A stretch of 60,977 nt of DNA from Bdellovibrionota bacterium. Lineage in GTDB: Bacteria; Bdellovibrionota; FAC87; UBA2466. This document shows, one piece after another, positions 24,474-49,355 of the stretch. The stretch spans positions 1-60,977 of the forward strand of contig JBGSST010000158.1 of assembly GCA_041736915.1 (NCBI GenBank), written 5' to 3'. Made by a program: the position numbers and the translations under genes. Every line of letters starts with the position of its first letter. The first letter of the stretch is position 1. The notes below the pieces were generated by a model. That model had not been told where the DNA came from. It worked only from the letters and a program-made list of their open reading frames with translations, and searched no databases.

Positions 24474-24478
24474 GGGTT

Positions 24479-30333: not shown

Positions 30334-30410
30334 GGGTGCCTAGCTCAGTTGGTTAGAGCGCCGCCTTCACACGGCGGAGGTCACAGGTTCGACCCCTGTG
30401 GCACCCACCA
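30334..30410 (+). tRNA. tRNA-Val (anticodon CAC), CCA encoded
   Basis: A perfect cloverleaf was read by hand: acceptor GGGTGCC/GGCACCC, D-arm GCTC-AGTTGGTTA-GAGC, anticodon arm CCGCC-TTCACAC-GGCGG, variable AGGTC, T-arm ACAGG-TTCGACC-CCTGT, discriminator A, then CCA. Confidence 0.95.
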
Positions 30411-32151
30411 TTTTTAGGCAGGTACTGGAAACGTCCTCCACCCTGCAATCAGCCGAAAAGGACGAGCCATCCCGCAAAATGAAATCCAGCCGCCGATTCC
30501 CTTCGGCATCCTCATCACCCACAACAACCGCTTCAAATAACCGTGCATAGACGCTCCTGAGAGCCACAGGGTCGTGTGCAGCAAGTTTCCTTTGTGCTTC
30601 CTTAGCCGCATCACCATAAGAGGCGATATTGCGCGCTGAGTCGTGGATGGCGGTAATCTTCTCTTCCAGAGCCTCCCGCTTTATTTTGAGCTTTCCAATT
30701 TCCGAGTTAATCGCAGCCATTTTTGCGCGGTATTCCTGCTTAAAAGCATCCGCTTCGGCGCGGTCGGTCCCTTCCAGCAAGAAATCCAATCTCATATCCA
30801 ATTTTTCCCTAGATTTTTTGAGTCCGACGATCTGGCCATCAAAATGATCCAGTTGCTCCGTGCAGGCAGCTAGAGCCTCATCATTTTTAAGGATGCGAGC
30901 CCTGATCGCCTCCTGCATCTCTTTTGAATTCGCGCTGATCTGGTTGACGGTTTCCTGGGTCTTTTCTTCGATGATCTCAGCGGGGATTCTGATTTTGTGA
31001 CCTTTGTTCCAGTAATAAAGATGCTTTAGTTGGCTCGTGCTTGACCATGCTCCGGTGCCCGCAAATGTCGAACCATCTTTGAATTTGAGCACACCTGACA
31101 GCGGATAAATTCTACGGGTGGCTTTATCGACTGTTTTATTACCGGCAACGAGAGTGACGGTATCTTGCACCTTTTCCCAAAGTTCCGAATCAATCGCCTG
31201 ACCGTGGGGCAGCTCGATTTCCTGATAGCGGTCATAGGGCATTAGCTTGTCTTGGTTTTTCTCTTTATTCTCGCGATTCAAAATCCATTTGCCCATGTAG
31301 CGGCTGTTGGTCAAAAGTCCGCGCAAGATTCCGATGGTAAATGGCTCCCCGCTCTTGTTGCACACGCCGCTTTTTTCGCACCTCTCCAAAAGGCGCTCAT
31401 AAGAACGGCACGCCAAAAACTCATTCATGATCCAGACGACTTGCTTCATTTCCTGATCATTGATCGTGTAAAGCCCGACTTTGGGTTCACCATTCACTAA
31501 AAGCTGATCAAGTCCAAGAAACGTGCGCGAGGTATTGAACTTCCCCGAATGAATCATCGCGGAGAAGTTGTTTTCTTTGATCCGCCTTGAGGTTTGGTTG
31601 GATTCGTATTCGGCAAAGGCCGCCATGATGTCGAGCTGGAAAATCTGGGATGGATCATTCGGATTAAACGGGAAGCTGCGAATACAAATGGCGCAATCTT
31701 TCTCAATGCAAAGTCGAAAGAAGCGTTTCCAAATATCCGTCTCTCGTGCGATGCGGGCGAGTTCTTTGAAGATGACGAAGCGGTATTTTCCAGACTGGAT
31801 ATTGCTTTGCAGCCTAATGAACTCTGGTCGCTTGTCGTGACGGCCCGTAATCCCTGGTTCGATATAAAACTTAGTGATCTTGTAGTTCACCTTATCAGCG
31901 TTCGAGCGCGTGATGGCCTCGGAAATAGAGATGTAGATTTGTTGCTCAAGCGAGCCCTTTTCAACGGAAACTTGCTGATCGGTAGAAAGCCTAAGATACG
32001 CGGCTCCGTTGATAGTGTCCCAGCTTGGATCAACTGGTTGCCATGTCTCGATGTACTGTTGGGCCAGCGTCTTGCAGTCTTCAACGATACGGGCAACAAG
32101 TCCCTTGAACTCATCACGGGTCATCTTAGGTTTGATCGCCAATGCCGACAT
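30367..32151 (-). CDS. Large serine recombinase (integrase)
   Basis: 594 aa. N-terminal resolvase-type catalytic motif AAYLRLSTDQQ, a recombinase/zinc-ribbon-like middle and a long coiled-coil region. The last 14 codons plus the stop are encoded antisense to the tRNA-Val 3' half. Confidence 0.85.
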   Translation of the reverse strand: MSALAIKPKMTRDEFKGLVARIVEDCKTLAQQYIETWQPVDPSWDTINGAAYLRLSTDQQVSVEKGSLEQQIYISISEAITRSNADKVNYKITKFYIEPGITGRHDKRPEFIRLQSNIQSGKYRFVIFKELARIARETDIWKRFFRLCIEKDCAICIRSFPFNPNDPSQIFQLDIMAAFAEYESNQTSRRIKENNFSAMIHSGKFNTSRTFLGLDQLLVNGEPKVGLYTINDQEMKQVVWIMNEFLACRSYERLLERCEKSGVCNKSGEPFTIGILRGLLTNSRYMGKWILNRENKEKNQDKLMPYDRYQEIELPHGQAIDSELWEKVQDTVTLVAGNKTVDKATRRIYPLSGVLKFKDGSTFAGTGAWSSTSQLKHLYYWNKGHKIRIPAEIIEEKTQETVNQISANSKEMQEAIRARILKNDEALAACTEQLDHFDGQIVGLKKSREKLDMRLDFLLEGTDRAEADAFKQEYRAKMAAINSEIGKLKIKREALEEKITAIHDSARNIASYGDAAKEAQRKLAAHDPVALRSVYARLFEAVVVGDEDAEGNRRLDFILRDGSSFSADCRVEDVSSTCLKMVGATGVEPVTSAV

Positions 32152-32156
32152 CTTTA

Positions 32157-32567
32157 CTAACCTCCCGAATTTCTCACCGCGTCCGCAAATATTTGACTGA
32201 CATCATTGATAAGCGACGGGGTTAAGTTTCCTCGCACATAGCACTTAAATTTTTTCGCGTTCTCAATCACCGCAGCTCGCTTCGTCCGCATTTTTTTGCG
32301 AAACAATTTCTTCTGCTGGCGAACGCAGGGTTTGCACTTGCTGGCGAATCGCTCTCGCTTCTTGTGAAACTCTTTCCAGGGTTTCCATTTTTGACAGCGT
32401 GTGCATACCCTTCCTTCGGATTCCTTGAGCGTTTTTCCCCGGCAGCTCGCGCATTTTTTCTCGCCTTCCGCGAACTGCTTTCGCTCCTTATTTTCACCGC
32501 AAACATAGCATTTTTTGGTGTTCTCAACAACCGTTTGATCGCTGGAATTTCCGTTATTTACGAGCAT
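32157..32567 (-). CDS. Basic Cys-rich protein with four CxxC pairs (double zinc-ribbon-like)
   Basis: 136 aa with CYVC, CASC, CTRC and CKPC, and Lys/Arg-rich. It ends 5 nt upstream of the recombinase start. Confidence 0.55.
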   Translation of the reverse strand: MLVNNGNSSDQTVVENTKKCYVCGENKERKQFAEGEKKCASCRGKTLKESEGRVCTRCQKWKPWKEFHKKRERFASKCKPCVRQQKKLFRKKMRTKRAAVIENAKKFKCYVRGNLTPSLINDVSQIFADAVRNSGG

Positions 32568-32666
32568 TTTTGACTCTCAAAATGCCCGGCTTCGCGTTCG
32601 GTTGAAGAGGCCAGTTAGGTTCCTAAAAGTCTCGCCACGGAGGGGAGAGAAGCACGTTAATAGGGG

Positions 32667-33053
32667 CTATTCCTGCTCCTTCTCCGCCTCATTAGGAGGC
32701 TGGTTTACTTGGGTCACTGACGCTGTGAAATCGGCCAGAAGGCGACCCAAGAACTGCTCTTTCGAGAATTGAGTGTCACCAGTCTTGGCTTGCTGGCGAA
32801 ACAACAGCTCCAACTTGTCCGCATTGGACAGGCTCGTTTCCTGCAACTCGCGCTTGTCGTCGTCGGTCAGTTTGCTGATCGCCTTTGCAACGTAGTCGCT
32901 AAAGCTGATGCGACGGCCAAAATCTTTTTTGTTCAACTTCGCAAGCTCGCGACGAATCGCACGCGCAATATCTTTATGTACGCGAATCGGAACGGTGTTA
33001 GTCGGATTGTTCTTGGTTGGCTGAGGCTTCTGATTCTGTTCGTTCGGTTCCAT
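32667..33053 (-). CDS. Small DNA-binding-like protein (ribbon-helix-helix-like)
   Basis: 128 aa. A polar N-terminus is followed by a beta-strand/helix pattern (VPIRVHKDIARAIRRELAKL) resembling RHH/MobC-type accessory proteins. This is a pattern-only call. Confidence 0.4.
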   Translation of the reverse strand: MEPNEQNQKPQPTKNNPTNTVPIRVHKDIARAIRRELAKLNKKDFGRRISFSDYVAKAISKLTDDDKRELQETSLSNADKLELLFRQQAKTGDTQFSKEQFLGRLLADFTASVTQVNQPPNEAEKEQE

Positions 33054-33310
33054 ATCGGACTCCTGTTTGAGTGAAGTCCGCGATGGTTGGTAGGGCTTCG
33101 GATAAGTATTGTATTGGCTCTGGACGTAGAGGCCGTAAAAACTAGGCGTTTATTGAGATGGGCTGCATACGAGCAACAAGCATCTCAGTCCGTAATAAAT
33201 TGTCATTTTTGAATTTCTGGAAACTCTCGTCATATCCATTACTTCTTCTCCTTCCTTTAAAATCGCCCCCTATGACCGATACATAAGCAAATGCACACAC
33301 CATGTCATAC

Positions 33311-34057
33311 CTACAGAGTGATGCAGGAGTTACGCAGATTGGTGAACACCTTGTTTTCGGTTCCACTCCATTTTGAAAAATCTGAGTAGTAGAACTTCGG
33401 AGTTTCTTCACCCATCACGCTCTTCTCGATGCCACGGATGTAGTTGAGCAATGCTTCATTCTTACAAATGTAGAGAACACCAGGAATAGACTTGGTGTTG
33501 TAATATCGACGAACAAGATCCTTGTACCGATCCGCATACTTCCTTGCCGCCTCGTATTCCAAAGCAAGACGAAAAGGTTTTGCTTGCAGCTCGATTTCAA
33601 CTACGGCATCGGGGCGAATATCTCCCATCAAAAAATCTTCCACCGAGAAGGAAACAAGCCCATCTCCCGTGATTAGATTCTCAGGATAGTAGCGTTTGAG
33701 CTTTTTGGATTGCGACAATATCCAACGAACTTCGAGTAAATCCACATCGTGAGCAGGTGCTTTGCTGCCAAGCTCCTTTTTAACATTTTTTCCAAGCGGC
33801 ATGATGAATCGTTTGAAGCCTTCGTCTGCCAAACTGAAAAGAGCCTTGTGCCCAAGTCCGTAATGAAAAGCTCCCTTGATCAGACGATTCCTAACCAGTT
33901 TTGCGAGGCGATTCTGCACGCTTCGTCTGTTGTAATCGGAATAGATGTGGCGGTGAATCTGATCAGTCGCCGCAATTTTGTTTTCGTATAGGTATCGAAA
34001 TAGTTTTTCATCTGAGGAACCAATTTCGATTCCTCGTTTTGGTTTCATAAGCTGCAT
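33311..34057 (-). CDS. Replication-relaxation (Replic_Relax)-like protein with N-terminal winged helix
   Basis: 248 aa. The N-terminal wHTH pattern (DEKLFRYLYENKIAATDQIHRHIY...VQNRLAKLVRNRLI) and the size match the family. The start overlaps the stop of the upstream FtsK-like gene by 13 nt. Confidence 0.5.
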   Translation of the reverse strand: MQLMKPKRGIEIGSSDEKLFRYLYENKIAATDQIHRHIYSDYNRRSVQNRLAKLVRNRLIKGAFHYGLGHKALFSLADEGFKRFIMPLGKNVKKELGSKAPAHDVDLLEVRWILSQSKKLKRYYPENLITGDGLVSFSVEDFLMGDIRPDAVVEIELQAKPFRLALEYEAARKYADRYKDLVRRYYNTKSIPGVLYICKNEALLNYIRGIEKSVMGEETPKFYYSDFSKWSGTENKVFTNLRNSCITL

Positions 34058-35655
34058 ACTTCGTCTCCTTCTTCTTCAGCAGCATTGGCGAGATCGCTCG
34101 CGGAATCAGCAGCGTTTGCATCACTTTCATTTGCTGGTTTGCTACGGTTCGCAGCCTGCTCTAGTTCACTCGCGGCGGCTTTTTGTTGCGCGGGGATCTC
34201 GATCATGGGGTGGTAGAGTTTGCGCACTTCTTTGGCAAACTCCGCCTTAATTCGTGAGCACCGATCCACAATATCGACATCAGAGATGTAGGGAGCCTGT
34301 ACTACGGTGAGCTTGTTCCCGAGACTCCAGATGCCACGCCCCTTGGTATCGGGCAGCTCGGCGGCATCTTTGTTTCCAAGGACGATGAGCGATCCTTGCA
34401 AGGTGTTCATCTTGAAACACATTCGCGCCGAGATGTTTTCCTGAATGCTGGTTGCGATGATCTCTTTTGAGACCTTTTGAGTAGCCAGAATAAGATGGAT
34501 ACCGGCAGCGCGAGCGAGCTTTGAGAGATCGTCGGTGAGTCGTTGCGCTTGCGACGCCAAATTGAACTCAGGATCATCTTTGGCTCGTTTCATGTAGAGC
34601 ACTGACGCTTCGTCTACAGCTACGATGATCCGCTCTCGTTTGTCGCGCTTTGGCTCGATGAATTTCAGTTTCCTTTCCTCCAGGTAGTTGAACCTAGCCG
34701 TCATCTCGGCCTTCATTTTCCGCAGGATGTATACAGCATCAGCCATATTTTTAATCACGCGGACGTTGGGCGTATCGCTAAAATCGACCATCTCCAGACC
34801 GGCCTTAAGGTCGATGAGATACATTTGCAGGTGTGGGGATGATTGCAGAAGACCAACCAAGGCTTGCTTGAAGAAACAGCTTTTGCCTGCACCCGTGGTG
34901 CCCGCGATAAGCATGTGCGGCAGATCGCAAATATCTTTTTGCACCACACCGTCGAGTGCGCGACCAATGTAGAAACTGTACGGCTTCAGTTTCTCCTTCG
35001 CACTCACGTCTTCGTAGCTGACGTAGCCAGGGAGTTTCTTTTCCGTAAGCGTGAGCGAGATGAATCTTTGACTCTGCTCGTGCTCGATGGATTCAACTGC
35101 CTTGCCAAAGGCGGCTTCGAGATCGCCCGTAGCTGATTCAAAACGGGCTTTCCCAATGTTTCGAGTATCGAAGGTGAGCTTTACCCGTTTGGCGTCGAGA
35201 TTCTTACGGCTGACGAGCACAGGGCATTCGCCTACCTTGTTGGTTAGGCCAATGGCCTGGAATATCTTTTGGTACTTCGTGCGGGTGAATCGGAGCTGGA
35301 AGCCCAGCACAATCGAAATACAAGCCGTTAAAAGGCCGCTGACGACGTACAGGTGACTTGCAACGCTTTGGCGGTAGATCCAGGCGAGAAACTTTGTGCC
35401 AATGAGTTCAGGGGCTAGTTCCAGCAAAAGCCGCAAGTGATAGCCCTTGTAGCAGGCGTATAGGGCCGCACCGTAAACAAGAACAGTCGCGGGAATGGTG
35501 TAACGTGGCTTTTGGAAATGGAGCCTCACAAAATGAGAGAGGCCCATTCCGAAAACCACGACAGTTTCTTGCAGCACGTCCTCAATCAGTCGCGCAGCGG
35601 GACTGTCCCCACGGCGACCGGAGGGTGACTGCTCGTAAGATGATTTGCCTTGCAC
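34045..35655 (-). CDS. FtsK/SpoIIIE-family DNA translocase (candidate coupling protein)
   Basis: N-terminal TM helices, Walker A GTTGAGKS, Walker B IIVAVDEAS, and an FtsK-type LILATQK motif. GTG start at 35655 is preceded by GGAG. Confidence 0.85.
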   Translation of the reverse strand: MQGKSSYEQSPSGRRGDSPAARLIEDVLQETVVVFGMGLSHFVRLHFQKPRYTIPATVLVYGAALYACYKGYHLRLLLELAPELIGTKFLAWIYRQSVASHLYVVSGLLTACISIVLGFQLRFTRTKYQKIFQAIGLTNKVGECPVLVSRKNLDAKRVKLTFDTRNIGKARFESATGDLEAAFGKAVESIEHEQSQRFISLTLTEKKLPGYVSYEDVSAKEKLKPYSFYIGRALDGVVQKDICDLPHMLIAGTTGAGKSCFFKQALVGLLQSSPHLQMYLIDLKAGLEMVDFSDTPNVRVIKNMADAVYILRKMKAEMTARFNYLEERKLKFIEPKRDKRERIIVAVDEASVLYMKRAKDDPEFNLASQAQRLTDDLSKLARAAGIHLILATQKVSKEIIATSIQENISARMCFKMNTLQGSLIVLGNKDAAELPDTKGRGIWSLGNKLTVVQAPYISDVDIVDRCSRIKAEFAKEVRKLYHPMIEIPAQQKAAASELEQAANRSKPANESDANAADSASDLANAAEEEGDEVCSL

Positions 35656-35740
35656 ACGAAATCTCCGTGCGCTCGGCGCATCATGGTGGTGGCAAAGCGG
35701 AGCATTTTTTTAGGCGCGCAAGGATGCGTGGCCCAGGTTT

Positions 35741-37225
35741 TCACATCAAGGCAGCGGCCTTAGTTCCGACGTTCTTTACATCTTCCACAGCTTCCGGTGC
35801 GCGTTCGCTACCGCTATCACGCAGCATCGGCGAAAACACATAAGCCAGAAACGCCGTAGGCAAAGGCCCGACCAAAAGTTGCAACCAAGAGTAGATGGAA
35901 TACATCTTATAGAGTCGCGAGGTGATGAGACTTGCGCTGTAAAGTGAAACCATGTCCTGTAACTTTCCGAAGGATTGCATCACGTCGGCTGATAACGCGA
36001 TGTTGGTCATGATGTGATAGAACAGTGTCCAAATCGGGGTCCAAAGCAGAACTGAAAAGTAAATCATGTACCAGTAGAGGATCGCTTTCCATCTGCCAGC
36101 GACGACGAAAAAGACTAGAAACGGGAAGATCATGATCAAAATCATTTTCACGAATCCCGCGATGTGCGGAGCACGCGATAGGTCGTTGGCAAACTCGTCC
36201 GCCCTTGCTGTGGCAGTGCCAATGCCGGAAAGCTCGCCGAGGCCAAGCATGTGCAACACGCCATCAAAGGAAAATACCCGGCTGATGTAGCGAGCCGCTT
36301 TTCCGGCCATGCCCGGAACCTCAGATCCCTTTTCGATGCCCAGGAACCCCTCGCGCTTTTCAAGCTGCTGGTTGATAAGCCATTGAGAGATCCAAAGGTT
36401 TGCCATCGTCTTTCCGCCGGTAAGCCCAGGGTCGAGATGCTTTTTTGCTTCGGCCTCCTCAACCCCCATCTTCGAGAAGTAGTAGGCGACCATGTTGGTG
36501 CGCATCTCTTCCTTGAGATCAAGGCAAGTGACCGGCGCACTTCCAGGCGGGGTTGCGATTTTGTAGCGTTTCAGCTCTTCGTCCACGTCGGGATAGTTGC
36601 CGAAGAAACGATCCAGCATGTCCACGTCTTTGAATTTCTCGATAAAGGGCAGCGCCCTTTCAAAGCATTGCTCTTGGTAGAGATCGATTTTGGAGCGCAG
36701 CTCGCCATCTTCAATGGTTTGTGACGAGGCGAGCATGATCGCCTTGTAGAAAAAGCTGGGCGATTCGAGTTGCGAGTTGGTTTTCTTAAAAATATTGTCC
36801 ACGACAACGCCCAGAAACCGCGCCACCTCCTCAGCCGAGCGAGTCAGAATATCGAAGATGAAGCTTACCTCGTATTCGGCATCAACTTTTGGAATCTTCT
36901 TTTTGATATAGCTATTCGTGTGCCATGACACCTGCGAAAATTTCTTCACTGGCGTATGCGACTGAACTTTTAAAAGGCTGATCCCAAGAAACAAGCAGGC
37001 AATGATCTTCACGAATGCAGAAAGCGGCACTGCTTTCTTCGATATGAGTGTATCGGGCATGTAACGCGAAAAGAACTTCACGCAGGTAAAGAAGAACATC
37101 GCTCCGAATATCAGGAGCAAAATCGCGAGAAATATTTTCTGCGACGTAATGATCTTGATGAACTGCGAGTGCAGTGCAAGCCCTAGATATTGATAAAATG
37201 CTTCATAGGCGGTACTTGAAAACAT
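35741..37225 (-). CDS. Polytopic membrane protein, TraG N-terminal-domain-like (F-type mating-pair stabilisation/pilus assembly)
   Basis: 494 aa with multiple TM segments at both ends and a large soluble loop. Its position after the traH-like gene matches the F order traH-traG. The family call is tentative. Confidence 0.45.
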   Translation of the reverse strand: MFSSTAYEAFYQYLGLALHSQFIKIITSQKIFLAILLLIFGAMFFFTCVKFFSRYMPDTLISKKAVPLSAFVKIIACLFLGISLLKVQSHTPVKKFSQVSWHTNSYIKKKIPKVDAEYEVSFIFDILTRSAEEVARFLGVVVDNIFKKTNSQLESPSFFYKAIMLASSQTIEDGELRSKIDLYQEQCFERALPFIEKFKDVDMLDRFFGNYPDVDEELKRYKIATPPGSAPVTCLDLKEEMRTNMVAYYFSKMGVEEAEAKKHLDPGLTGGKTMANLWISQWLINQQLEKREGFLGIEKGSEVPGMAGKAARYISRVFSFDGVLHMLGLGELSGIGTATARADEFANDLSRAPHIAGFVKMILIMIFPFLVFFVVAGRWKAILYWYMIYFSVLLWTPIWTLFYHIMTNIALSADVMQSFGKLQDMVSLYSASLITSRLYKMYSIYSWLQLLVGPLPTAFLAYVFSPMLRDSGSERAPEAVEDVKNVGTKAAALM

Positions 37226-37228
37226 CGC

Positions 37229-37420
37229 TTAATCTCCACATAAAATGTCGTCCGAACAATCCTGCAAAGCAGATCGCGACTGTTCCCCGCGACGGACGGC
37301 GCTGTTGGTTTGAATTCGGTGGCCGCGTGCCACGTCCTCGTATTTCAGACCCTCTTCGTTGATCTGCATGAGAACTGTGTTGAGCGGTTCCGTTCTTTTA
37401 GCTTCAAGAAGCATGGTCAT
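37229..37420 (-). CDS. Small hypothetical protein in tra operon
   Basis: 63-aa ORF exactly filling the gap between the traH-like gene (4-nt overlap) and the traG_N-like gene (3-nt gap). Confidence 0.35.
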   Translation of the reverse strand: MTMLLEAKRTEPLNTVLMQINEEGLKYEDVARGHRIQTNSAVRRGEQSRSALQDCSDDILCGD

Positions 37421-38523
37421 TTCGATCTGCTCTTTGAGGGCTTTGCGCTTTTGCTCCGCCTCCGCCTTGCGGTTGTCGGAAGATTTACGTTCTGCGTCAC
37501 CCGCGTCATGAAATCGAGCGATTGACTCATCTTCTCGGTGAAGGTTGGCATCGCGAGCGCGTCCGAGAGCTTCGCTAAAGCAGCTTCCCGCACTCGGTAC
37601 GGCATGAAGGCAAGCGATTGCAGGGTTTCATGATCGACCGCGCCAATAGCGACGTTACCGTTAAGCTCCTTCAAATCACGGTCAGAGACGACGCGGTAAA
37701 CGCTGGCACCAGAACCCGCCGATTCCACTTTTTTAAGAAGGGCTGCGATCTTCTTGTATTTTTCCTCTCGAAGCGACGTTAGGTAAGTGCGTGGCGTAAG
37801 AATGACGTTACGCGGACCGTAGTCCACTGACACGTTACCCTTGCTCACGATGGAATCACCCACAACGCTTTTCACGATGTTGAGAAGATCGGTCGATTCC
37901 TGATCGGTCATGCCCTGCCACTGCGCCGAAGATTCCAAAAGGCGATTGGATGAGGCTTTGCCGAACTTGTTGCCAGCCCAATTGGAAAGGTCGGCATTCC
38001 AGTGGTTCTTGCAACTTTCCATCGCGGCTTCCATATCACCGCCGTTATTTTGAATGGACTGATGCACGCACTGCTGGCGTTCACGGTAAAAATCTTCAAC
38101 ACGGCTATCGACGTACTTATCCACGATAGAGCACTGATCGAGGCGCATTCCTGAAAGCATGTTCGCATTCAGGTGGAAGTTTTTAAGGATGCTGCACCAA
38201 GTCGGGGACATGTAGCAGGTGAGAAGCATCGGGGCCGAGGCCACGATGTTTTTACCGATGTCGCCAAAGTATTTCGCATCGAGCAGATTGCGAAGACTCG
38301 CCTTGATGGTCTGATCAAAGTTGATGCGTCCGCAGTCAGAACCAATTCCCAAATTGAGGTTCAGTTCAACGGAACGGTATTGGTCAAAGATCGGGTCTTT
38401 GCCAAACCCGTGCTGCTTGAACAGATACTCATTCGGCGAGAATCGGTTGGAGTTGCGGTAATCCAGCGACTCCGCATGGAGAGCTGGCGTAAATAGCAAC
38501 GCTCCGAAAATAAGAAAACGCAT
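37417..38523 (-). CDS. TraH-like conjugative pilus assembly protein
   Basis: ATG at 38523 is preceded by AGGAGG and gives a signal peptide (MRFLIFGALLFTPALHA). The Cys pattern around GSDCGRINF ... LLTCYMSPTWCS ... LDQCS resembles the TraH CGGID/CPxC region. Confidence 0.5.
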   Translation of the reverse strand: MRFLIFGALLFTPALHAESLDYRNSNRFSPNEYLFKQHGFGKDPIFDQYRSVELNLNLGIGSDCGRINFDQTIKASLRNLLDAKYFGDIGKNIVASAPMLLTCYMSPTWCSILKNFHLNANMLSGMRLDQCSIVDKYVDSRVEDFYRERQQCVHQSIQNNGGDMEAAMESCKNHWNADLSNWAGNKFGKASSNRLLESSAQWQGMTDQESTDLLNIVKSVVGDSIVSKGNVSVDYGPRNVILTPRTYLTSLREEKYKKIAALLKKVESAGSGASVYRVVSDRDLKELNGNVAIGAVDHETLQSLAFMPYRVREAALAKLSDALAMPTFTEKMSQSLDFMTRVTQNVNLPTTARRRRSKSAKPSKSRSK

Positions 38524-38533
38524 AGATAACCTC

Positions 38534-41113
38534 CTACAAGCCATTAGGGTATTTCTCCGCAAGCATCGAAAGCGCCTCCCACTTCTTTCCGGCAAACTTT
38601 TTCAATGCTCGATCTGCTTCAGCCGCGGCTTTGGCATTGGTAGGCGATAGCCACATGCTGAGTGGTGTCGGGTGGTAGCGGAATGCTCCCTGCACGGTCT
38701 TCTTTTTGTTCATGTAAAAGACCTCAGCGTACTGACCGCGCTTGGTACGCAAAGACTTGATGATTTCGACGTTCGCCTCATCGAGCATGGAGGAGTGCTG
38801 CGCGAGGTAGTCCACGTTGTCGGTATTCATTTGCAGGAAGATGTAGTTGTCAGCCACACCCCAAAATGCCTTGCCAACATCCAGCTCGAAATAGTTCTGT
38901 GGCCTCGGTGTCAGAGTGATTAGCCAGTAACCGAGCTTGCGGCAGGTTTCCGCCATATCAACGGCGAAATCGCGCACGGCGGGGTTGTTACGCCCCAACA
39001 TCGCGAATTCCTCGAAGACGATGAATCCGCCCCGGCCCTTGTTCTCTGGCAGCTTGATCGTCTGGCGAATTTCTTCAACCACTGCCATCGTCATCAGCGT
39101 TTGCAGGACGGGATCGTTATCAAGCGCATCGAGATCGTAGGCGTAGAACAGACACTTTTTGCGCTTTCTTTCGGGGCTACCGCGAAAGAATTTTGCGTAA
39201 ATTCCGTCGTCATAAAACGGGCGCAACTTGTGAACCAAATCGTCGATAGCAGTCCTTAACCGCTCGTTGCCGTCTGAAACGAGAGCGCCGAGCTCGGCCA
39301 CGAAGTCTTCCATCGTCAGCTCAACTTCTTTGTCGCTGTTTTGCTGCAACAGCTCACCATCCACATAAGCAAGGCCCTGCTGCTTACACTTTTTGATGTA
39401 GGCAAATTTCAATGCGCGACTGATGGATGCCTGATGCTCGCTTTCAATTTCAAAGGAAGGCGACGTGAGTTTGACCGCTGTGATAATGAGCTTCGTCAGT
39501 AACGCGATCTTGTCTTCGTCATACACTCCGCGAAATGGACTGAATGGAACTTCGCCGTTGCGATCAAATACCGTGAGATCGCCGTCGAAGTATTCCGAGA
39601 GCATCGTGTAACTGGATTTCTTGTCGATGATGAAAATGAGCGGTTCAGGCATGTCCGGCTTGGTCCGCTTGGCCGCTTGGATACAGTCGATGACAAACGC
39701 ACTTTTCCCAGAGCCGCTGTCCGCGAGAACAACGGTGTGATTCGATGTCTCGTTCTCCGTCAGGGAAAACGGAACGAGGTTGTTTTCGCGAGACAAGAAA
39801 AGTTGCAACGGGTTTTTGAGACCGCGAAAGGAATCAAAGACCGGCACAAAGTTGACCGCATCCGAGCGAAGAATACGGATGTACCGCTGCGCCGACATAT
39901 CCGAATCTGGCATGTAGTTGAGCGGCAAAGAGTTGAGGCAAAGTCCAAGGCCAATGTCGTTCTCAACGATGACTTCGCACTCAAGCTCGTTGTGAAACAC
40001 GTTCACGATTTCGCGGGTGCGCTCGTCCAGAATATCTTCGTTTTCACCTTCAATCGTGACGTTGAAAGTCATGTGAAGGCAGCGATCCTCTCGTGCGAGC
40101 TTGTCTTGCACTTCCAGGATCTCTTCGCGCTGGCGACGAGCTTTTGCCGACGGCGTGTTTTGTAGAAAGAACTCTTTGAAGTCGAAGAACCGCTTTACTT
40201 TCCCCTTACTCGGAAAGTTGAAGTTGAGAGACATCGTGAAAGGGAAAGAGAGCTTGGTGAAATAGGCCATCCCGCCCGGATACGCATACTGCGGACTCGT
40301 TTTAAGCGAGATAGTGCGGGTTTTGATCCCTTCGCGCTCGATGCCCTGATAGTCGAGCGTGGGGCTTGAATAGATGAACTGCTGCGCGAGCGATTGGCTT
40401 GGATTGTACGGTGCGAAACTTCTTTTGTAATAGGTCTTGGGATTAAAAAAACGGCGCAGAATATCCAAGACTCCTTGAGCGTCGAGTTGGCGAAGTTTGA
40501 TCTTGGAATTGGCGGAAAAATCTGCGACCAAGTGTTTGAATCGCGTCAGCTCCCGGACTGTGTGCTTGAAAGTTCGTCCCAGAACAATGTCATCATTTGC
40601 CAATATCTCTTTGTAGCTGTGCGGCTGCTTTTCGGTAAGAAAGTAGCGAACAACAAGCAAGGTGCGCCGACTGAGCGGAGCAACGGATTGACTCGTCCCG
40701 CAAGCGCCTTGGTACTGCTCAAGACGCTTATCAAAGAGTACCGACGAAATGCCGTGGCCACTCGGATACTGTTTTTTCAGCGAGTCCCAAACGCGATCTT
40801 TGCTGGAAATCGCGGACTGCTCATAGATAACTTGCAGCACACATTCTTCGGGAAGACTGAACCAAGGTTTGACGTGCCTGACGGCATCAATGATTTCTTT
40901 TTCTGTCATCACCTCATGTTCAAGAAGCTGCACCTCGAAGACGGCGCCCAGCGAACCGTCACGCTGTTGGAAAATGCCCCCTTCCTCGATGAAATCATCA
41001 TAGGGAAGAAGGCTGCTTAGAGACTCTGGCCTACTGAAAAGCGCTTTAGTCAGATTTTCCCGATTGGTTAGAAATTTCTGGATCGGCTTTGGAACTAAGT
41101 TCGTATTCATCAT
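38534..41113 (-). CDS. traC: TraC/VirB4-family conjugative ATPase
   Basis: About 860 aa, Walker A ADSGSGKS, Walker B-like FIVFEEF, typical F-type TraC length. ATG at 41113 follows GGAG (the track begins at a TTG at 41122). Confidence 0.85.
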   Translation of the reverse strand: MMNTNLVPKPIQKFLTNRENLTKALFSRPESLSSLLPYDDFIEEGGIFQQRDGSLGAVFEVQLLEHEVMTEKEIIDAVRHVKPWFSLPEECVLQVIYEQSAISSKDRVWDSLKKQYPSGHGISSVLFDKRLEQYQGACGTSQSVAPLSRRTLLVVRYFLTEKQPHSYKEILANDDIVLGRTFKHTVRELTRFKHLVADFSANSKIKLRQLDAQGVLDILRRFFNPKTYYKRSFAPYNPSQSLAQQFIYSSPTLDYQGIEREGIKTRTISLKTSPQYAYPGGMAYFTKLSFPFTMSLNFNFPSKGKVKRFFDFKEFFLQNTPSAKARRQREEILEVQDKLAREDRCLHMTFNVTIEGENEDILDERTREIVNVFHNELECEVIVENDIGLGLCLNSLPLNYMPDSDMSAQRYIRILRSDAVNFVPVFDSFRGLKNPLQLFLSRENNLVPFSLTENETSNHTVVLADSGSGKSAFVIDCIQAAKRTKPDMPEPLIFIIDKKSSYTMLSEYFDGDLTVFDRNGEVPFSPFRGVYDEDKIALLTKLIITAVKLTSPSFEIESEHQASISRALKFAYIKKCKQQGLAYVDGELLQQNSDKEVELTMEDFVAELGALVSDGNERLRTAIDDLVHKLRPFYDDGIYAKFFRGSPERKRKKCLFYAYDLDALDNDPVLQTLMTMAVVEEIRQTIKLPENKGRGGFIVFEEFAMLGRNNPAVRDFAVDMAETCRKLGYWLITLTPRPQNYFELDVGKAFWGVADNYIFLQMNTDNVDYLAQHSSMLDEANVEIIKSLRTKRGQYAEVFYMNKKKTVQGAFRYHPTPLSMWLSPTNAKAAAEADRALKKFAGKKWEALSMLAEKYPNGL

Positions 41114-41128
41114 TTTCTCCAAGTGTGA

Positions 41129-41515
41129 TTAAAGTCTGCTGTTGCGCATGGGTTCGGTTCGTTCGGGAGCTGGATTCTTCGGTGCGGGATCAGGCTTCGT
41201 CACCGGCTTGAACACTTTTTCGAGGCCACCTGAAGTTGCCCAATGCGGTTCTTTGACGATGCTGCGAATCCATCCACCAAGAAAGTAGTCACCCGTCGGA
41301 AGTTCGTTAGGATGAACCCAGATATCCGCGATCACCGGCGCTGACCTTTTCGGAATCACCTTGTCGTCAGACGGCGCGAACGTGACATCAAGCGGTTTGT
41401 CGCCGCCCTCGTCATATCCGGCTCTGGCGTCAAGCATCCGTAGGCTCGGCGCACGGTTTGTGGCGCAGGCCGCGAGAAACAAAGTGCTGAACACAAATAG
41501 ACTGATCGTTTTCAT
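41129..41515 (-). CDS. traV: TraV-like outer-membrane lipoprotein
   Basis: 128 aa with a lipobox (LFLAACAT). Its position between traB and traC matches F-like systems. Confidence 0.55.
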   Translation of the reverse strand: MKTISLFVFSTLFLAACATNRAPSLRMLDARAGYDEGGDKPLDVTFAPSDDKVIPKRSAPVIADIWVHPNELPTGDYFLGGWIRSIVKEPHWATSGGLEKVFKPVTKPDPAPKNPAPERTEPMRNSRL

Positions 41516-41524
41516 AATTTCTCC

Positions 41525-42799
41525 TTACTCCGCAATTTTGGTGAAATAGGAATAGACGCTCTTGTCTTGCGAATCGGCTTTGCGAAAATACCAGTTGGGA
41601 AGCTCCACCTTGTCTTGCATCACAACCCAGATGTCCTGACCGGAGCCGATGTTGATCGTGGGAAGCAGCCGGTTGGCCTGCTGCAAATACCACTGCGTCA
41701 CCATCGAGGCCGCATTGCTCGCGCCACCGGCACCGATGTATTTCGCTTGATCTCCTGTGACCACCGATTGGCCGCCACCAAGAGCATTGGTTTGCTGAGT
41801 CGTTTGCGCTTGTTGAATCGCTTTCCCAACACCTTCGACAACGGAGGAGAGAAACGCAGTTGCAGCCACGCGGTCCTGCTTCGTACTGACCGATCCGATT
41901 ACAGCAAAGCTGTTGTCCGTGTCGTCCGCGACAAAACCATTCACCTCGCGCTCAAACATTTTCCCCTTCTGCGAAACGCACGAGATTTTCACCATCTGCA
42001 TTTGCACGCGCTCGGTGCTGAGATCGCCCTGGGCTTTGGAAATGCCGAAGCAGCCGGTGAGATCGACCTTGGTTCGGTTAGGGCCAATAAATGCGTAGTC
42101 GAGTTGCAAAAGGACCGGATAGTTTTTCCCCTCCGGCGCTTCCACACCCGTCATCATCTTGGCTTTGACGTAGCTGCCGGAGGGAATGACAACGCCCAGC
42201 TCTCCGACTTCAGCCTCCTTCACCGGAAACGAAATGGTCGCAGGCCCTTTTGCCGAGATGCGCGGAGCGGCAAAGCCCGTTCCCACCGATGGACTCATGC
42301 CAGCGCCGCGCTCACGGTAGAACTGCTGCGTGGGGTAAGACTCACTCGGCGAGCTTGGCTGTGGCGGATTGCCGAAACCTGGAGCTTCGCCGTTCGGATT
42401 GGATTGCTGCTGCGTATTATTGGTCGGTGGGGCCGTTCCAGTCGCAGGTTGCTGCGTCCCGTTTAGCCGATTCAAAATTTCGGTAAGTCGAGACTCGATG
42501 CCGGATAACTTTTCGTCGGTCGCGGTTTGCTTGGCCTCAAGATCCTTGATGGCCTTTGAAAGCAGTTGGTCGCGGCGTTTGTAGATGGAATCCGTCGATC
42601 CAAGAATTTTTCCACCTTCAAAGGACACCCCGTCCTTGGATTGGAAAACATAGGTTTCGCGCTCCATTCCCTTGCTGGCGACGTAGGTAAGTAGCAGTAG
42701 CAGACCAACACCAGCGGCGATGACGTAGATTCGCTTTTCCTTGTTGTTCTTCCACCACTGAGCCGCTTTTTCGACATACGGTTTTAACTTCTCTTTCAT
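41525..42799 (-). CDS. traB: TraB (VirB10-like) T4SS core protein
   Basis: N-terminal TM segment, a Pro/Gln-rich linker, and a C-terminal domain collinear with F TraB (IPSGSYVKAKMMTGVEAP...CFGISKAQGDLSTERVQMQMVKISC...INIGSGQDIWVVM). Confidence 0.75.
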   Translation of the reverse strand: MKEKLKPYVEKAAQWWKNNKEKRIYVIAAGVGLLLLLTYVASKGMERETYVFQSKDGVSFEGGKILGSTDSIYKRRDQLLSKAIKDLEAKQTATDEKLSGIESRLTEILNRLNGTQQPATGTAPPTNNTQQQSNPNGEAPGFGNPPQPSSPSESYPTQQFYRERGAGMSPSVGTGFAAPRISAKGPATISFPVKEAEVGELGVVIPSGSYVKAKMMTGVEAPEGKNYPVLLQLDYAFIGPNRTKVDLTGCFGISKAQGDLSTERVQMQMVKISCVSQKGKMFEREVNGFVADDTDNSFAVIGSVSTKQDRVAATAFLSSVVEGVGKAIQQAQTTQQTNALGGGQSVVTGDQAKYIGAGGASNAASMVTQWYLQQANRLLPTINIGSGQDIWVVMQDKVELPNWYFRKADSQDKSVYSYFTKIAE

Positions 42800-42914
42800 A
42801 AGGCAATACTCCTTGAGCCTCCGCCTCTTCTTTTGTGGTGAGAGGGGATTTCATTTTTTGAAATGGCTCTTGATGGAAGTAGCCTTATGAAACTGATTCG
42901 GATCTGACGGCTGT

Positions 42915-43721
42915 TTAGCCTTCTTTTTCCTTTTCTTTCTTCACGACCGCTACGGGTAGATTCACATTGTAGTAAACGGATGCCGGTTTCGCGACGATGC
43001 GCAGAAATACAGGACGCTCTGTCTTTTCATTTCCTGAAATTTTCTGTTCATCAATCTGCGAGAGAATTGCTGTGTTGGGGCTGCCGAGCGTGAGCTTGGT
43101 TACGTCGATCACGAAATCCTTATCATCGGCGTTGCTTGAAATCTTGAAGACGTAGCCGTTGAATTTCGCGCCGGTGTATACTCTGACGAGCTGGCAGTTG
43201 ATGCCGCTTACCTTGGTATCAACGGTGCGGATCAGTTTTTTCACCTGATACCCAGATACATGATCGCCGCGAATCATGGCTTTCATCAGTTCCAATTCGG
43301 AAACCCGTTCGCCCGTCTGATCGTTTGCCTCCGCCTTTTCAATCAGAGAATCCTTTCGTCTCAGATCGTAAAAGGAGTCGGTGTTTTCAGGGGCGGCCTT
43401 CGGCACCACCACGAGTTTGGTGTTGATGATCGACCCGTCGCTCATGATGAAAGTCACCTTGTCTTCCCCTTGAGAAAAACGAGGCGTAACTGACATCAGA
43501 GCATAGTTGGGTTGCTCCTCATCAGCGGGTCCAATCACGAAACGCGAAGCTTGGGAGATGGTTTTGACCGTCGTGGGGAAACGCACAATTGTCGGCCCAC
43601 CATACGAAAGCGTGATGGTTTCCATCTCATCGCCAACGTAAACGATGCGGGCAAAGCCTGTGTTGCTCCACAGCGACAACAAAATAAATCCGAAACCGAA
43701 TACTTTATAGAAGTTTTTCAT
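42915..43721 (-). CDS. traK: TraK (VirB9 N-terminal-like) T4SS core protein
   Basis: 268 aa with a signal peptide. The pattern and gene order (traE-traK-traB) match F-like systems. Confidence 0.6.
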   Translation of the reverse strand: MKNFYKVFGFGFILLSLWSNTGFARIVYVGDEMETITLSYGGPTIVRFPTTVKTISQASRFVIGPADEEQPNYALMSVTPRFSQGEDKVTFIMSDGSIINTKLVVVPKAAPENTDSFYDLRRKDSLIEKAEANDQTGERVSELELMKAMIRGDHVSGYQVKKLIRTVDTKVSGINCQLVRVYTGAKFNGYVFKISSNADDKDFVIDVTKLTLGSPNTAILSQIDEQKISGNEKTERPVFLRIVAKPASVYYNVNLPVAVVKKEKEKEG

Positions 43722-43723
43722 GA

Positions 43724-44485
43724 TTACTCTCCCGTGTTCTGAAGTGATTTTTTGGCCCTGAACGCTTCAACCTTGTTCCATCCGAGCTTGGATATTTGCA
43801 GATACCAACGACGCCCGCTTTCCGGTGGAACAAGCTTCAGCTCCATTTCGATGACCTGATCTTCGTGACCAAGAAAATTATTCTGCGAGTAGAACTCAGC
43901 GCGACTTATTGCCGTGACACGGTAGTTGCCCTTCTCGTCCGCCTTGACCTCCTTCTGGTTCACATGAAGAAGCTGCGAGATACCGTTTTCTTTGACCTGG
44001 CTCATCCAGTCGGCGATCTCCATTTTGAATTTGATCTTGAGTTCAGGACTCATCGAACGCGAAAGCGACTCGTACTGCTCGTCAATGTTGGTAGGGTTGA
44101 CGTTTCCAAGCTGCGATAAAAAGTCTGCCACCGCATCATTGACGTAGCTTTCGGAAACCGTTTGCGGCGAGGCCGTGGTGAAATCCATCACGCCAGGTGC
44201 CAAGATGTATTCCTTGAGGCGGTAACGCTCCATGAACTTGAGAAAGGAATACTCTCTGATGACCGCATACGTTGCGAAGACCGCAACGACGGCTGCCAGA
44301 ACGTATTTCAACGTCATCTGCGTTTTGAGATACGCTGCCTTGTAACAGATGTACTTGGGCAGATTTTTGAGATCCAACCCTTCGTACTCGCCAAGAGGAG
44401 GCGTCTTGAGTTTCGCCGCCTCGATTCCTTTTTGTGCCGCACCTATCATTTCGTTTCTCCATTCAAATATTTTTTTTAAATTCAT
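43724..44485 (-). CDS. traE: TraE-like bitopic inner-membrane T4SS protein
   Basis: 253 aa with a single TM segment (VLAAVVAVFATYAVI) followed by a TraE/VirB8-like periplasmic domain. It lies between traL and traK. Confidence 0.6.
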   Translation of the reverse strand: MNLKKIFEWRNEMIGAAQKGIEAAKLKTPPLGEYEGLDLKNLPKYICYKAAYLKTQMTLKYVLAAVVAVFATYAVIREYSFLKFMERYRLKEYILAPGVMDFTTASPQTVSESYVNDAVADFLSQLGNVNPTNIDEQYESLSRSMSPELKIKFKMEIADWMSQVKENGISQLLHVNQKEVKADEKGNYRVTAISRAEFYSQNNFLGHEDQVIEMELKLVPPESGRRWYLQISKLGWNKVEAFRAKKSLQNTGE

Positions 44486-44497
44486 CGCGTTCTCCCT

Positions 44498-44809
44498 TTA
44501 GTCCGAATAGCGTTTTCCGCCCTGTGGGTTGATGATTCCGGGCAGCGAAACGCCGAGCTTTGCATAGGGCCAATGCAGGAAGATCCCGCGCTCGTTGTTC
44601 TTCTTGATGACAGGCCCAATACCAAGAAAGACCACCAAAAGAGAAAACATCGTGAACCACGAGTAAAAGAGCACGCCGAAGATCATCACGATGGTTAGCG
44701 CAATGAAGGCATCGGAGAGTTCCCAATGATCGAAGATGGTAATCGGTGAGTCGATGGTTTGGCTCACGCGATTTCCTGAAGTCGCTTTCAGGTTGTCATA
44801 CCGAACCAT
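44498..44809 (-). CDS. traL: TraL-like T4SS protein
   Basis: 103 aa from ATG 44809 (MVRYDN...). It has a TraL-like hairpin of two TM helices followed by KKNNERG. The longer track ORF overlaps the pilin gene. Confidence 0.6.
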   Translation of the reverse strand: MVRYDNLKATSGNRVSQTIDSPITIFDHWELSDAFIALTIVMIFGVLFYSWFTMFSLLVVFLGIGPVIKKNNERGIFLHWPYAKLGVSLPGIINPQGGKRYSD

Positions 44810-45236
44810 GTTCGCCCTCCCGATCCTTGTCTTCGAGCAAGGCAACATAGGGTTTCTCCATTGTTTCCACTTGTCCGAAAATGCTGCTGTCGCCACTGAT
44901 GCTGAATACGTTTTTCACCCAAGTAGGAGCTGTCCCGAAGACCACGGCTCCGATTACACAGATGACGGCCATGCCGAAGCGTTGCTCTTTCAACGCCCAG
45001 GCCGCACTCATGATGCAAAGTCCGGCGAAAAGCCGCGCGCCCCACTTGAAAAGTCCCGTATCGATGAGGTGCAGGAGTGTGCCCGCCGCCTCTAGCTTGG
45101 CACTTTCATCCCGTCCCGGAAGATTACCGATGTCAGCAAGTGCGATGTCTGCGTACATCAGAACAAAACCAACGACGGCAACCGCGATCAGGCCAAAAAG
45201 TTGCCAGTCCCACCACTTTGGAATCCATTTCACCAT
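44796..45236 (-). CDS. Candidate conjugative pilin (TraA/TrbC/VirB2-like)
   Basis: 146 aa. A leader-like TM segment is followed by two hydrophobic helices separated by a short charged loop (LKEQR). It is the first gene before traL, as in F (traA-traL-traE-traK-traB-traV-traC). AAGGA lies 8 nt upstream of the ATG. Confidence 0.55.
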   Translation of the reverse strand: MVKWIPKWWDWQLFGLIAVAVVGFVLMYADIALADIGNLPGRDESAKLEAAGTLLHLIDTGLFKWGARLFAGLCIMSAAWALKEQRFGMAVICVIGAVVFGTAPTWVKNVFSISGDSSIFGQVETMEKPYVALLEDKDREGEHGSV

Positions 45237-45328
45237 AACGATTTCCTTTTTCTTCAGCAGCTCCGCTCTGTAGTGGTGGGAAGTGCGTATTCAATATTGG
45301 CCTCGCTGCTGCGGTGGGCCTAAAAACC

Positions 45329-46114
45329 TTATCCGCCGCTCGCCTGAGCGTTGATAGCTTCAAAGACCGAATCGGTGCTCTGATAACCAGAAAGCCGGTA
45401 CACAACTTTCTTTTGCAAATCCCCGATCAGAAGAAACGGCACGCTCTTGATCTGGTGCTTGTCCACGTCGGCCTTACTGGCTTTGGTCACAGCGACTGTC
45501 AAGCCAGGTAGCGCGACATCATTGCCATCAATCTGAAACGCTTCGACGTAGAAGCCGCGAGACTGCAAATCTGAAACGGTGGCAAACATGCGCTTGCAGT
45601 GCGGGCACTGCGAATCAAAGTAGAAGCGGAAACGATACCTGCTTGTCTCTGGGGGTGCCTTTTGCAGACTCTCTTTCGCATTCACTAGGATCGCTTTGCT
45701 TTGCGGCTCCATCTTAGCTTCGTTCTTTGCAAGGTACTCCTGCATCCGGCCCATCATCCGACTCGTTAGCTCATTTTTCTTTTCGATCATGGCGAACCAA
45801 TTTTTGATATTCTCGTCCGTTGGATTGCGCACCAATTCCATAAACGGTTCAGGCGGCGTATACTCGCCTTCGCGGAAAAATTCTTTGTTGCTCGGATCAA
45901 GATGCGCTTTCCAATCGAACTTGTCGGGTGTTAACGCCGATGACTTCTTCTCCGGCACGGCAGCCGGAGTGCTCTTTTCTTCCTTTTTCTGTTCGTTCCA
46001 GTAGTCGATACCGGAATTGAAGAAATTGAAGTCGTTGGCGTGTGCCTCGGAGGACACCAGCACAACGCCAACGACTCCGCCCCATACTGCGGACAAAATG
46101 GATCTAGGCCACAT
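45329..46114 (-). CDS. TraF/TrbB-family periplasmic thioredoxin-fold protein with CPHC active site
   Basis: Signal peptide and a C-terminal thioredoxin-like domain (FYFDSQCPHCKRM...VPFLLIG). Confidence 0.6.
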   Translation of the reverse strand: MWPRSILSAVWGGVVGVVLVSSEAHANDFNFFNSGIDYWNEQKKEEKSTPAAVPEKKSSALTPDKFDWKAHLDPSNKEFFREGEYTPPEPFMELVRNPTDENIKNWFAMIEKKNELTSRMMGRMQEYLAKNEAKMEPQSKAILVNAKESLQKAPPETSRYRFRFYFDSQCPHCKRMFATVSDLQSRGFYVEAFQIDGNDVALPGLTVAVTKASKADVDKHQIKSVPFLLIGDLQKKVVYRLSGYQSTDSVFEAINAQASGG

Positions 46115-47723: not shown

Positions 47724-47725
47724 AG

Positions 47726-48739: not shown

Positions 48740-48996
48740 CAGTCTACATCCCCACCATTTGCGAATTGCCGTTTGGAAACGAGTAGAAATCGGCGATTCT
48801 TTGGGTGGTCCTCGACCTGCCGTAGCTGTCCGTCGTGGTAGACGAAGTGAAATGAGCCGTATCGCATCTCGATGCCGAACTCTTTGCAGAATGCTTTTTG
48901 AAGGCGGTCGGCAGCTTCCTTGATGACGGCCAGATCCGGCACATTGGAAAGCGTTTCGCGAAAGTCGCGATTATCGAATTGATCGTTTTTAAGCAT
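48739..48996 (-). CDS. Small DUF2292/YezD-like protein
   Basis: 85 aa from ATG 48996, preceded by a perfect AGGAGG. It has the YGSFHFVYHDGQLRQVE motif characteristic of YezD-like proteins. Its stop overlaps the traU-like start (TGATG). Confidence 0.5.
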   Translation of the reverse strand: MLKNDQFDNRDFRETLSNVPDLAVIKEAADRLQKAFCKEFGIEMRYGSFHFVYHDGQLRQVEDHPKNRRFLLVSKRQFANGGDVD

Positions 48997-49039
48997 CGTG
49001 ATCCTCCTATAAGTTGTTTGGTTAGAGCCTCGTACATTG

Positions 49040-49249
49040 CTAAAAGTCCTCTTTGTCTGGGTCGCGAAGGTGTTCATACGAATTTTCGTTGGCACACATG
49101 CGGGCATAGATGTCCACGCTGTCCCAATCGCATTCGCGGCAGAAATATTCTCCGCCGACATTTTCCAACCTGGTCGAAGAGCAAACAGGGCAGCAGCGGG
49201 GTTGCTTCTTGCGACGAGACTTCTTTTCACGATCAGCCATTTCGCTCAT
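49040..49249 (-). CDS. Small zinc-ribbon protein, first gene of the tra operon
   Basis: 69 aa with CPVC...CREC. GGAGG lies 8 nt upstream of the ATG. Confidence 0.5.
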   Translation of the reverse strand: MSEMADREKKSRRKKQPRCCPVCSSTRLENVGGEYFCRECDWDSVDIYARMCANENSYEHLRDPDKEDF

Positions 49250-49339
49250 GGCAAATTCCTCCAGAGATGCGCGCAGAATTTCTTCCGCGCTGCGGTTGCA
49301 GTTTTTTTGAGAAGTGCGCGCCTCTCGCCCTTAATAAAT

Positions 49340-49355
49340 TTCAAGGGCTGTGCCA
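49340..49355 (-). promoter_or_regulatory. Candidate sigma54 (-24/-12) promoter facing the tra operon (imperfect -12)
   Basis: The minus strand reads TGGCACAGCCCTTGAA. It has a perfect -24 TGGCAC and correct spacing, but the -12 reads TTGA instead of TTGC. It lies about 90 nt upstream of the zinc-ribbon gene start. Confidence 0.3.

Follow-up and report, generated by a model that had tools for sequence, protein, structure and literature searches.

The stretch of DNA analysed here (the window) is the entire 60,977-nucleotide (nt) contig C209 of a Bdellovibrionota bacterium assembly (GCA_041736915.1, here G000; 476 contigs, 4.75 Mb), and its subject is a large serine recombinase gene whose 3' end lies inside a tRNA gene. 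ARAGORN found a single tRNA in the window, tRNA-Val(CAC), at 30334..30410 on the plus strand, and the gene is intact, as an earlier note on this DNA had stated. Converging on it from the minus strand is the recombinase open reading frame (ORF; 30367..32151) of 594 residues, which contains the YLRLSTDQQ motif named in that note and in which Pfam recognized a Resolvase domain (PF00239, E 4.1e-18) and a Recombinase domain (PF07508, E 2.6e-14, residues 233-332). The final 14 codons of the ORF (MVGATGVEPVTSAV) and its stop codon occupy 30367-30411, and 44 of these 45 nt fall within tRNA-Val, the sole base outside it being the A of the Met-581 codon at 30411. The TGA (30367-30369) lies, as the note had described, in the antisense of the anticodon loop, where it spans the base preceding the anticodon (30368-30370) and the first two of the three anticodon positions.

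At tRNA-Val the G+C content drops from ~ 58-60% to ~ 50%, where it stays up to the end of C209 (genome 58%). The low-G+C part carries a block of DNA-processing and mating genes on the minus strand (33311..47954), for which Pfam identified Replic_Relax-like, FtsK/SpoIIIE, TraH, TraC, TrbI and T2SSE-type ATPase products. A tyrosine integrase was looked for on C209 and on C11, a second contig of the same assembly described below, and none was found. An island of distinct composition beside a tRNA gene thus carries an integrase together with mating and DNA-translocation genes, and the low G+C combined with this gene set indicates a conjugative element that runs off contig C209, with a body at 30407..60977 and its far end on C11. 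Judged from sequence, the window very probably holds the attachment site attL of an integrative conjugative element (ICE) whose length is at least 33 kb and which its own large serine recombinase inserted into the 3' end of tRNA-Val(CAC).

The recombinase was compared with known large serine integrases. The catalytic residues R54 and S56 were invariant across 61 homologues, and the family profile aligned to residues 63-523 of the 545 residues of SPbeta SprA; for these reasons residues 1-582 are read as a complete serine-integrase core. A catalytic and then a recombinase domain follow one another in the same order as in the SPbeta SprA, A118/LI, Bxb1 and phiC31 integrases, in which a zinc-ribbon-like region with coiled coil comes next, as it may here too. 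No Pfam zinc-ribbon model matched the 594-residue ORF and no CxxC pairs were present in that region, and residues 391-562 gave a weak match of the coiled-coil type.

It had been proposed in the earlier note that attR could be located beyond the window through a second copy of the tRNA 3' segment. Neither the window nor the assembly contained the tRNA 3' half a second time, but the attR end was nevertheless found, on C11 (locus L013), by a different marker consisting of an inverted 22-nt arm, a 7-nt core and an in-frame gene fragment. The arm is the outer part of the element-side half-site, at 30419..30440 in the window, where it encodes VEDVSSTC; it recurs once in the 4.75-Mb assembly, as a perfect inverted repeat at C11 8291-8312 (whole-genome BLAST, E 4e-5; register test). 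Beside this copy the G+C content of C11 is 49-50% on one side, which is element-like, and 54-58% on the other. With the low-G+C side taken as inward, the two arm copies are inverted relative to each other, which is the arrangement expected of P and P' in the attP of a serine integrase. At a distance of 12 bases on the outer side of each arm is the 7-nt block CCACCAT (30405..30411), which is identical at attL and attR and reads ATGGTGG at C11 8272-8278. In the window this block is the end of the tRNA, and on C11 it contains the ATG of a helix-turn-helix (HTH) ORF of 156 residues, hereafter the C-fragment, which begins within this core. In G000 the family is represented by a single recombinase and a single C-fragment.

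Joining of the recombinase strand to C11 at the common core in silico gave an open, in-frame ORF of 736 residues. The excised form of the gene, which the earlier note had wished to see reconstructed, can thus be rebuilt with attP internal to it, and in this reconstruction the integrase gene does span attP, with the crossover inside the ORF, as the note had supposed. Its suggestion that integration would swap the C-terminal tail is supported in silico in that the C terminus is exchanged, but the exchange is not tail for tail: a 154-residue domain with two HTH units gives way to 12 tRNA-derived residues.

The joined 736-residue ORF aligned end to end with uninterrupted proteins of natural origin, one from each of three sources, namely P0040 (730 residues, 43% identity, ENA), P0024 (739 residues, 43% identity, Logan) and P0195 (737 residues, 34% identity, JGI), all of them colinear with it over ~ 720 residues. 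From the core K-M, a conserved QKY motif was 37 residues away in each of P0024, P0040 and P0195 and likewise in reconstructions made for G000 and for two other genomes, G006 and G348. The contigs on which P0024, P0040 and P0195 sit are 28.5, 2.5 and 11.8 kb long, respectively.

The position of the crossover was approached through the symmetry of the reconstructed attP. The centre was placed at the two bases after TGG (antisense CCA) plus one base, and the left 40 nt were compared with the reverse complement of the right 40 nt. Over the outer positions 13-40, in register, 24 of 28 positions matched in G000, and the corresponding counts were 23/28 in G234, 22/28 in G167, 21/28 in G006 and 14/28 in G348. 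On either side of a central dinucleotide, the reconstructed attP has 12 nt followed by a 22-nt arm; in this geometry, 30407..30418 are the 12 nt next to the dinucleotide in the half-site on the element side (ACCATTTTTAGG). The arm includes a conserved GAGGAC motif, at positions 27-33 counted from the centre. The central dinucleotide of attP is GG, or TC in G348, among the five elements compared. The symmetry centre places the crossover at tRNA C71 and C72 (30405..30406), read as CC on the plus strand and GG on the recombinase strand. The tRNA would then retain host bases up to ~ 30404 and take its ACCA (30407-30410) from the element, and the end of the recombinase tail, GATGVEPVTSAV (residues 583-594), together with the stop codon (30367..30404, minus strand, antisense to the tRNA) would be host-derived. 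A crossover in the 3' part of the tRNA had been presumed in the earlier note, which also recognized that one outside the integrase ORF would speak against its proposal; the position given by symmetry is inside both. In silico, the attP therefore shows inverted half-sites around a 2-bp crossover, as do the att sites of canonical large serine integrases with their short core, and only 7 nt are common to attP and attB in the reconstruction. The attP half-sites of known serine integrases are roughly 25 bp, and the arms here, which extend to ~ position 34 from the attP centre, are longer by comparison.

A crossover could also be imagined directly beside the 22-nt arm, at the GG of 30417-30418, 7-8 nt downstream of the tRNA, which would leave the tRNA untouched, would again divide the gene and would give a circle form of 728 residues. 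Both perfect arms of G000 are followed by GG, a palindrome with no spacer would be possible, and the join is in frame. However, such a join loses the K-M-V core of the uninterrupted proteins, and the 37-residue spacing from K-M to QKY fits only the join at the tRNA core. No common dinucleotide was present beside the arms in G234, G006, G167 and G348, whereas the TGGN-NN centre is common to all five elements, and CCACCAT, at the tRNA end, is the block in which both ends are identical. The 728-residue join at the arms was rejected on this spacing and on the cross-element comparison, and a crossover beside the arm is accordingly held to be very improbable.

The arrangement recurs among relatives of the recombinase. 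More than 140 homologues of ~ 580-600 residues were found, and the named ones are from Bdellovibrionota (Pseudobdellovibrionaceae, Bdellovibrio, Oligoflexia and Bacteriovoracales). Among the 21 loci that show the 3' end of the gene, the recombinase abuts a convergent tRNA or transfer-messenger RNA (tmRNA) gene in 19, the RNA genes concerned being Val, Gln, Ala, Asn, Leu, Asp and Met tRNAs or tmRNA. The stop codon lies inside the RNA gene in 19 of these 19 loci, with an overlap of 38-164 nt, and the reading frame relative to the CCA end is common to 18 of them; an ORF end inside the tRNA is therefore not a matter of chance. Lack of conservation of the overlap in related elements, which had been named beforehand as an observation that would count against the proposal, was thus not what was seen. 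In addition, the C-terminal peptide is a translation of the antisense of a tRNA T-arm in 69 of 106 near-full-size homologues. At L019 (G167:C11), one of the two loci without a recognizable tRNA, the flank starts with TGGTGGAATCGTCGGGATC, which resembles a decayed tRNA 3' end.

Both ends of an element are visible in the complete genome G234, in which a low-G+C island of 32.9 kb has the recombinase and a tRNA-Ala at one end and a C-fragment, in the same orientation, at the other, with 25-nt inverted arms that match at 23 of 25 positions. Pairs of recombinase and C-fragment on one contig were also found in G006, G167, G348 and G207. In G376, a pairing of the C-fragment on C143 with the recombinase on C110 was rejected, since the cores differ and the two belong to separate elements. 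At its far end, the G234 island adjoins a repeat of 1.2 kb (G234:C1:675938-677133, L039) that has five identical copies in this genome and stops 2-3 nt from the att core. This repeat is presumably an insertion sequence, which probably destroyed the outer half-site and immobilized the island. At two further loci, L037 (G006:C122, ~ 53830-53900) and L045 (G378), a remnant of another recombinase 3' end lies outside the start of the C-fragment (CECLKVVG... and IFRAWIKMVD..., respectively). These remnants have the form of an attP-like junction in the chromosome, which suggests tandem insertion or accretion of related elements. In G001, a sister species of the same genus, a different island follows the same tRNA-Val (L011, G001:C121, tRNA at 2656-2733); just past the tRNA, the opposite strand reads like the 3'-terminal part of a different integrase gene, and this sequence has no DNA similarity to the element studied here. 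As this tRNA-Val in G001 is followed by an unrelated island, tRNA-Val is taken to be an insertion hotspot.

The C-fragment was characterized next. Pfam gave a partial Recombinase match and an HTH match for the ORF. In an AF2 model (predicted local distance difference test, pLDDT, 79), residues 1-31 are disordered and are followed by two small helical DNA-binding units; the disordered stretch is, in this model, the translated att site. The second helical unit superposes on the recombinase domain of the serine integrase 9dxd_A over 72 residues with a root-mean-square deviation of 2.1 A. Foldseek returned no match to the model at E <= 0.001, and its weak matches were to bipartite HTH domains (the Pax paired domain and Tc3/Mos1) and to the serine-integrase recombinase domain. 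A contact between the N-terminal part and the C-fragment was predicted with a score of 0.48, as against 0.01 for the best of three controls. Of 80 solved complexes, 58 attained the mark used for a contact, as did two of 110 mismatched pairs; at scores of 0.60 or below it was attained by seven of the 80 and by both of the passing mismatches. The prediction runs shared at least 51% of their contacts and the partner pLDDT was at least 68. The models lend weak support to a contact between the two parts.

C-fragment-like ORFs were present in 162 of 401 sampled genomes of the phylum, and a profile search returned 19,411 proteins among cluster representatives. Among the best single-stretch matches, stand-alone proteins of 135-260 residues are in the majority, and in three cases the match is fused at the C terminus of a protein of 671-737 residues. 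The top matches to the profile (P0121-P0134 and others) are proteins of 500-1100 residues in which the first HTH unit (profile positions ~ 20-72) is repeated in tandem, with 7-14 copies. The module is also fused in distant relatives of the recombinase (G218, 753 residues; G211, 793 residues; G230, 657 residues), and no internal palindrome was found in these three fused genes. Fusion without a palindrome in distant relatives indicates that the two-HTH part is an ancestral domain of this recombinase clade, and a real one, and that the att site was later placed in the linker of the subfamily to which the present gene belongs.

One could instead regard the overlap as incidental read-through, with a recombinase that is complete at ~ 582 residues and has no stop codon of its own, an HTH ORF that is an independent gene, and long database proteins that are chance fusions. 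The core is already as long as known serine integrases, most single-stretch matches to the C-fragment profile stand alone, as noted, and the authors who described dsiB of Dehalococcoides reasoned in a similar way (PMC3146451). Against this, every reconstructed pair is in frame with constant spacing, the three uninterrupted proteins, from three sources, are colinear over ~ 720 residues, and the module is fused in distant relatives that have no internal att site. Furthermore, the start of the C-fragment ORF lies precisely within the recombination core, and a disordered linker is predicted for its residues 1-31. Read-through of this kind is judged most improbable.

The arrangement favoured here is that attP lies inside the recombinase gene, in the stretch encoding a disordered linker that joins the canonical core to a C-terminal DNA-binding domain with two HTH units. 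The circular element would encode the 736-residue enzyme, and strand exchange between attP and attB would take place at tRNA positions 71-72, with the element restoring the ACCA of the tRNA. Integration would split the gene, such that codons 1-582 remain at attL and are followed by 12 antisense-tRNA codons up to the TGA in the anticodon loop, while the remaining 154 codons come to lie at attR, on C11, behind the core ATG. On the sequence comparisons set out above, this structural account, with attP inside the gene, the gene cut on integration and the tRNA restored, is considered highly likely.

Several observations weigh against it. The attR is on a different contig, and the linkage of attL with attR is a matter of sequence logic alone. 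No DNA corresponding to an excised circle or to an empty attB was found. In a source-like metagenome run (X1), contigs bridge attL and no alternative junction was present among the matches listed. The tRNA-Val of G001 offers no empty site, being occupied by the other island, and at G234 the left flank in such a comparison is the insertion sequence abutting the island. P0024, P0040 and P0195 are known as proteins only and could come from tandem arrays instead of circles. In searches for an uninterrupted gene, 17 loci were matched in metagenome contigs and 11 in genome contigs, each by the N-terminal part of the query only. Finally, a promoter scan upstream of the C-fragment gave no sigma-70-like promoter, and a ribosome-binding motif at this position is not conserved, which makes expression of the C-fragment in the integrated state doubtful. 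The search for an uninterrupted gene in viral contigs returned no loci. In G001, the homologue of the gene flanking the element on C11 is not beside a tRNA, and a comparison of the C11 flank proteins with the tRNA loci of G001 and G002 gave no matches.

With attP inside the gene, the full-length, integration-proficient enzyme could be made only from the circle, and the chromosomal copy would encode a truncated yet complete core that still performs excision. Excision would probably need a small directionality factor and perhaps also the free C-fragment; a candidate for the factor is the Cys-rich, basic ORF of 136 residues (32157..32567, minus strand) that ends 5 nt before the start codon of the recombinase. 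Neither this ORF nor its neighbour at 32667-33053 has any Pfam family, and the next genes beyond them are the Replic_Relax-like and FtsK-type ones. The split may be a built-in state switch between integration and excision. This reading is favoured by the fact that a conjugative element must excise to transfer and by a truncated product that is the whole core, and, as a reading of sequence, it is put at somewhat below an even chance. More tentatively still, the position of attP within the gene could itself be the directionality control. The two-HTH domain would read the long outer arms, so that the circle-only enzyme integrates, and the core lacking this domain, possibly with the free fragment, would favour or permit excision; the architecture would then act in place of, or besides, a separate factor.

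The main alternative is that the split is suicidal, with both halves dead in the chromosome and the element locked in place; only the action of a second copy, of a tandem insertion or of a different recombinase could then free it. The lack of a promoter-like site upstream of the C-fragment would fit, as would the remnants at the outer flank of attR in G006 and in G378, which accord with tandem insertion or accretion, and degenerate small copies such as that of G006 (6.3 kb, with a truncated recombinase). There is also a precedent in the SSV-type elements of archaea (PMC7253208). However, the N-terminal part keeps a complete core with invariant catalytic residues, and the element carries an apparently intact conjugation set that would be useless without excision. 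In addition, the N-part ORFs mostly have no internal stop (15 of 19 loci at 588-624 residues), and the same is true of ~ 137 of the 150 listed C-fragment matches. A suicidal split is on balance judged unlikely.

A close relative of the element is present in another habitat. In X2, an unrelated cave metagenome of 2019, a contig that ends at the position equivalent to 30419 carries a recombinase 3' part ~ 99% alike to the window (30419-31149), and a short contig joins tRNA-Val to the arm with five differences in 81 nt. On the chromosomal side of the tRNA in the window, a region with a three-gene signalling operon (24000-30300) has an intermediate G+C content of 52-55%. Directly inside the far end of the element, adjoining the C-fragment, C11 encodes an AAA_16/STAND-type ATPase of 434 residues (8919-10223), which may be a cargo or defence gene.

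The closest known system is DsiB of the Dehalococcoides ssrA islands, a large serine recombinase encoded beside attL (McMurdie et al. 2011, PMC3146451). As here, it is convergent with an RNA gene, and its 3' end overlaps attL and that gene. Its authors considered that DsiB is perhaps fully functional only on the circular element, and judged the overlap itself probably non-functional (PMC3146451). DsiB differs from the present system in targeting tmRNA only, with insertion at the T-loop and a 20-bp direct repeat, whereas many tRNAs as well as tmRNA are used by the family described here. It is also paired with a small second serine recombinase, DsiA, and with a ParB/Mom/RecF-like module, and no such gene adjoins the recombinase here. 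When the two systems are compared by description, a separated C-terminal domain at the far end, like the 154-residue two-HTH domain found here, is not described in the DsiB study. The statement in the earlier note that no such case was known for ICE serine recombinases must therefore be qualified: dsiB is a partial precedent, but a split at the level of domains is undescribed in the literature searched, and the same literature holds no description of this recombinase family of Bdellovibrionota. Canonical large serine integrases, for their part, have attP outside the gene, target protein-coding or intergenic sites, and have no extra C-terminal domain with two HTH units. A database paper of 2015 noted that serine integrases were not known to target tRNA genes.

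In architecture, the arrangement resembles that of the tyrosine integrases of SSV1 type (type I, 'suicidal') in archaeal viruses and plasmids (PMC7253208, PMC8371274), which have been described as restricted to archaea (PMC7253208). There too attP is within the integrase ORF, the gene is divided on integration into a tRNA gene, with its N and C parts at opposite ends of the element, and part of the protein is encoded by the att site. The SSV1-type enzymes, however, are tyrosine recombinases of a different fold and chemistry, and the split inactivates them, whereas the cut here comes after a complete catalytic core. According to a published statement, the integrases of Mx8 and SSV extend across attP. 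For Mx8 (IntP/IntX), the published account describes that integration gives int a new 3' end and that the altered protein is active with changed properties (PMC6070905, citing Tojo 1996 and Magrini 1999). As far as that account goes, Mx8 is like the present case in being a bacterial element with attP inside int and a new 3' end on integration, and it differs in that its integrase is a tyrosine recombinase of a phage rather than a serine recombinase of a conjugative element. Being a serine recombinase, the enzyme studied here is an analogue and not a member of the attP-spanning tyrosine group to which SSV1 and Mx8 belong.

These results bear on annotation. The 594-residue database protein would be a chimera of element and antisense-tRNA sequence, and the stand-alone HTH ORFs present in 162 of 401 sampled genomes would be fragments of integrases and not regulators. 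These elements would escape island finders that search for nothing but tyrosine integrases and long repeats of tRNA sequence. For the insertion of large DNA, serine integrases are the principal tools, and the control of their direction is an active question. Across Bdellovibrionota, many tRNAs, and tmRNA as well, are targeted at their ends by this recombinase family. If loss of the C-terminal domain does alter activity, the split gene would be a natural switch between integration and excision, and a serine counterpart of the SSV1 and Mx8 designs.

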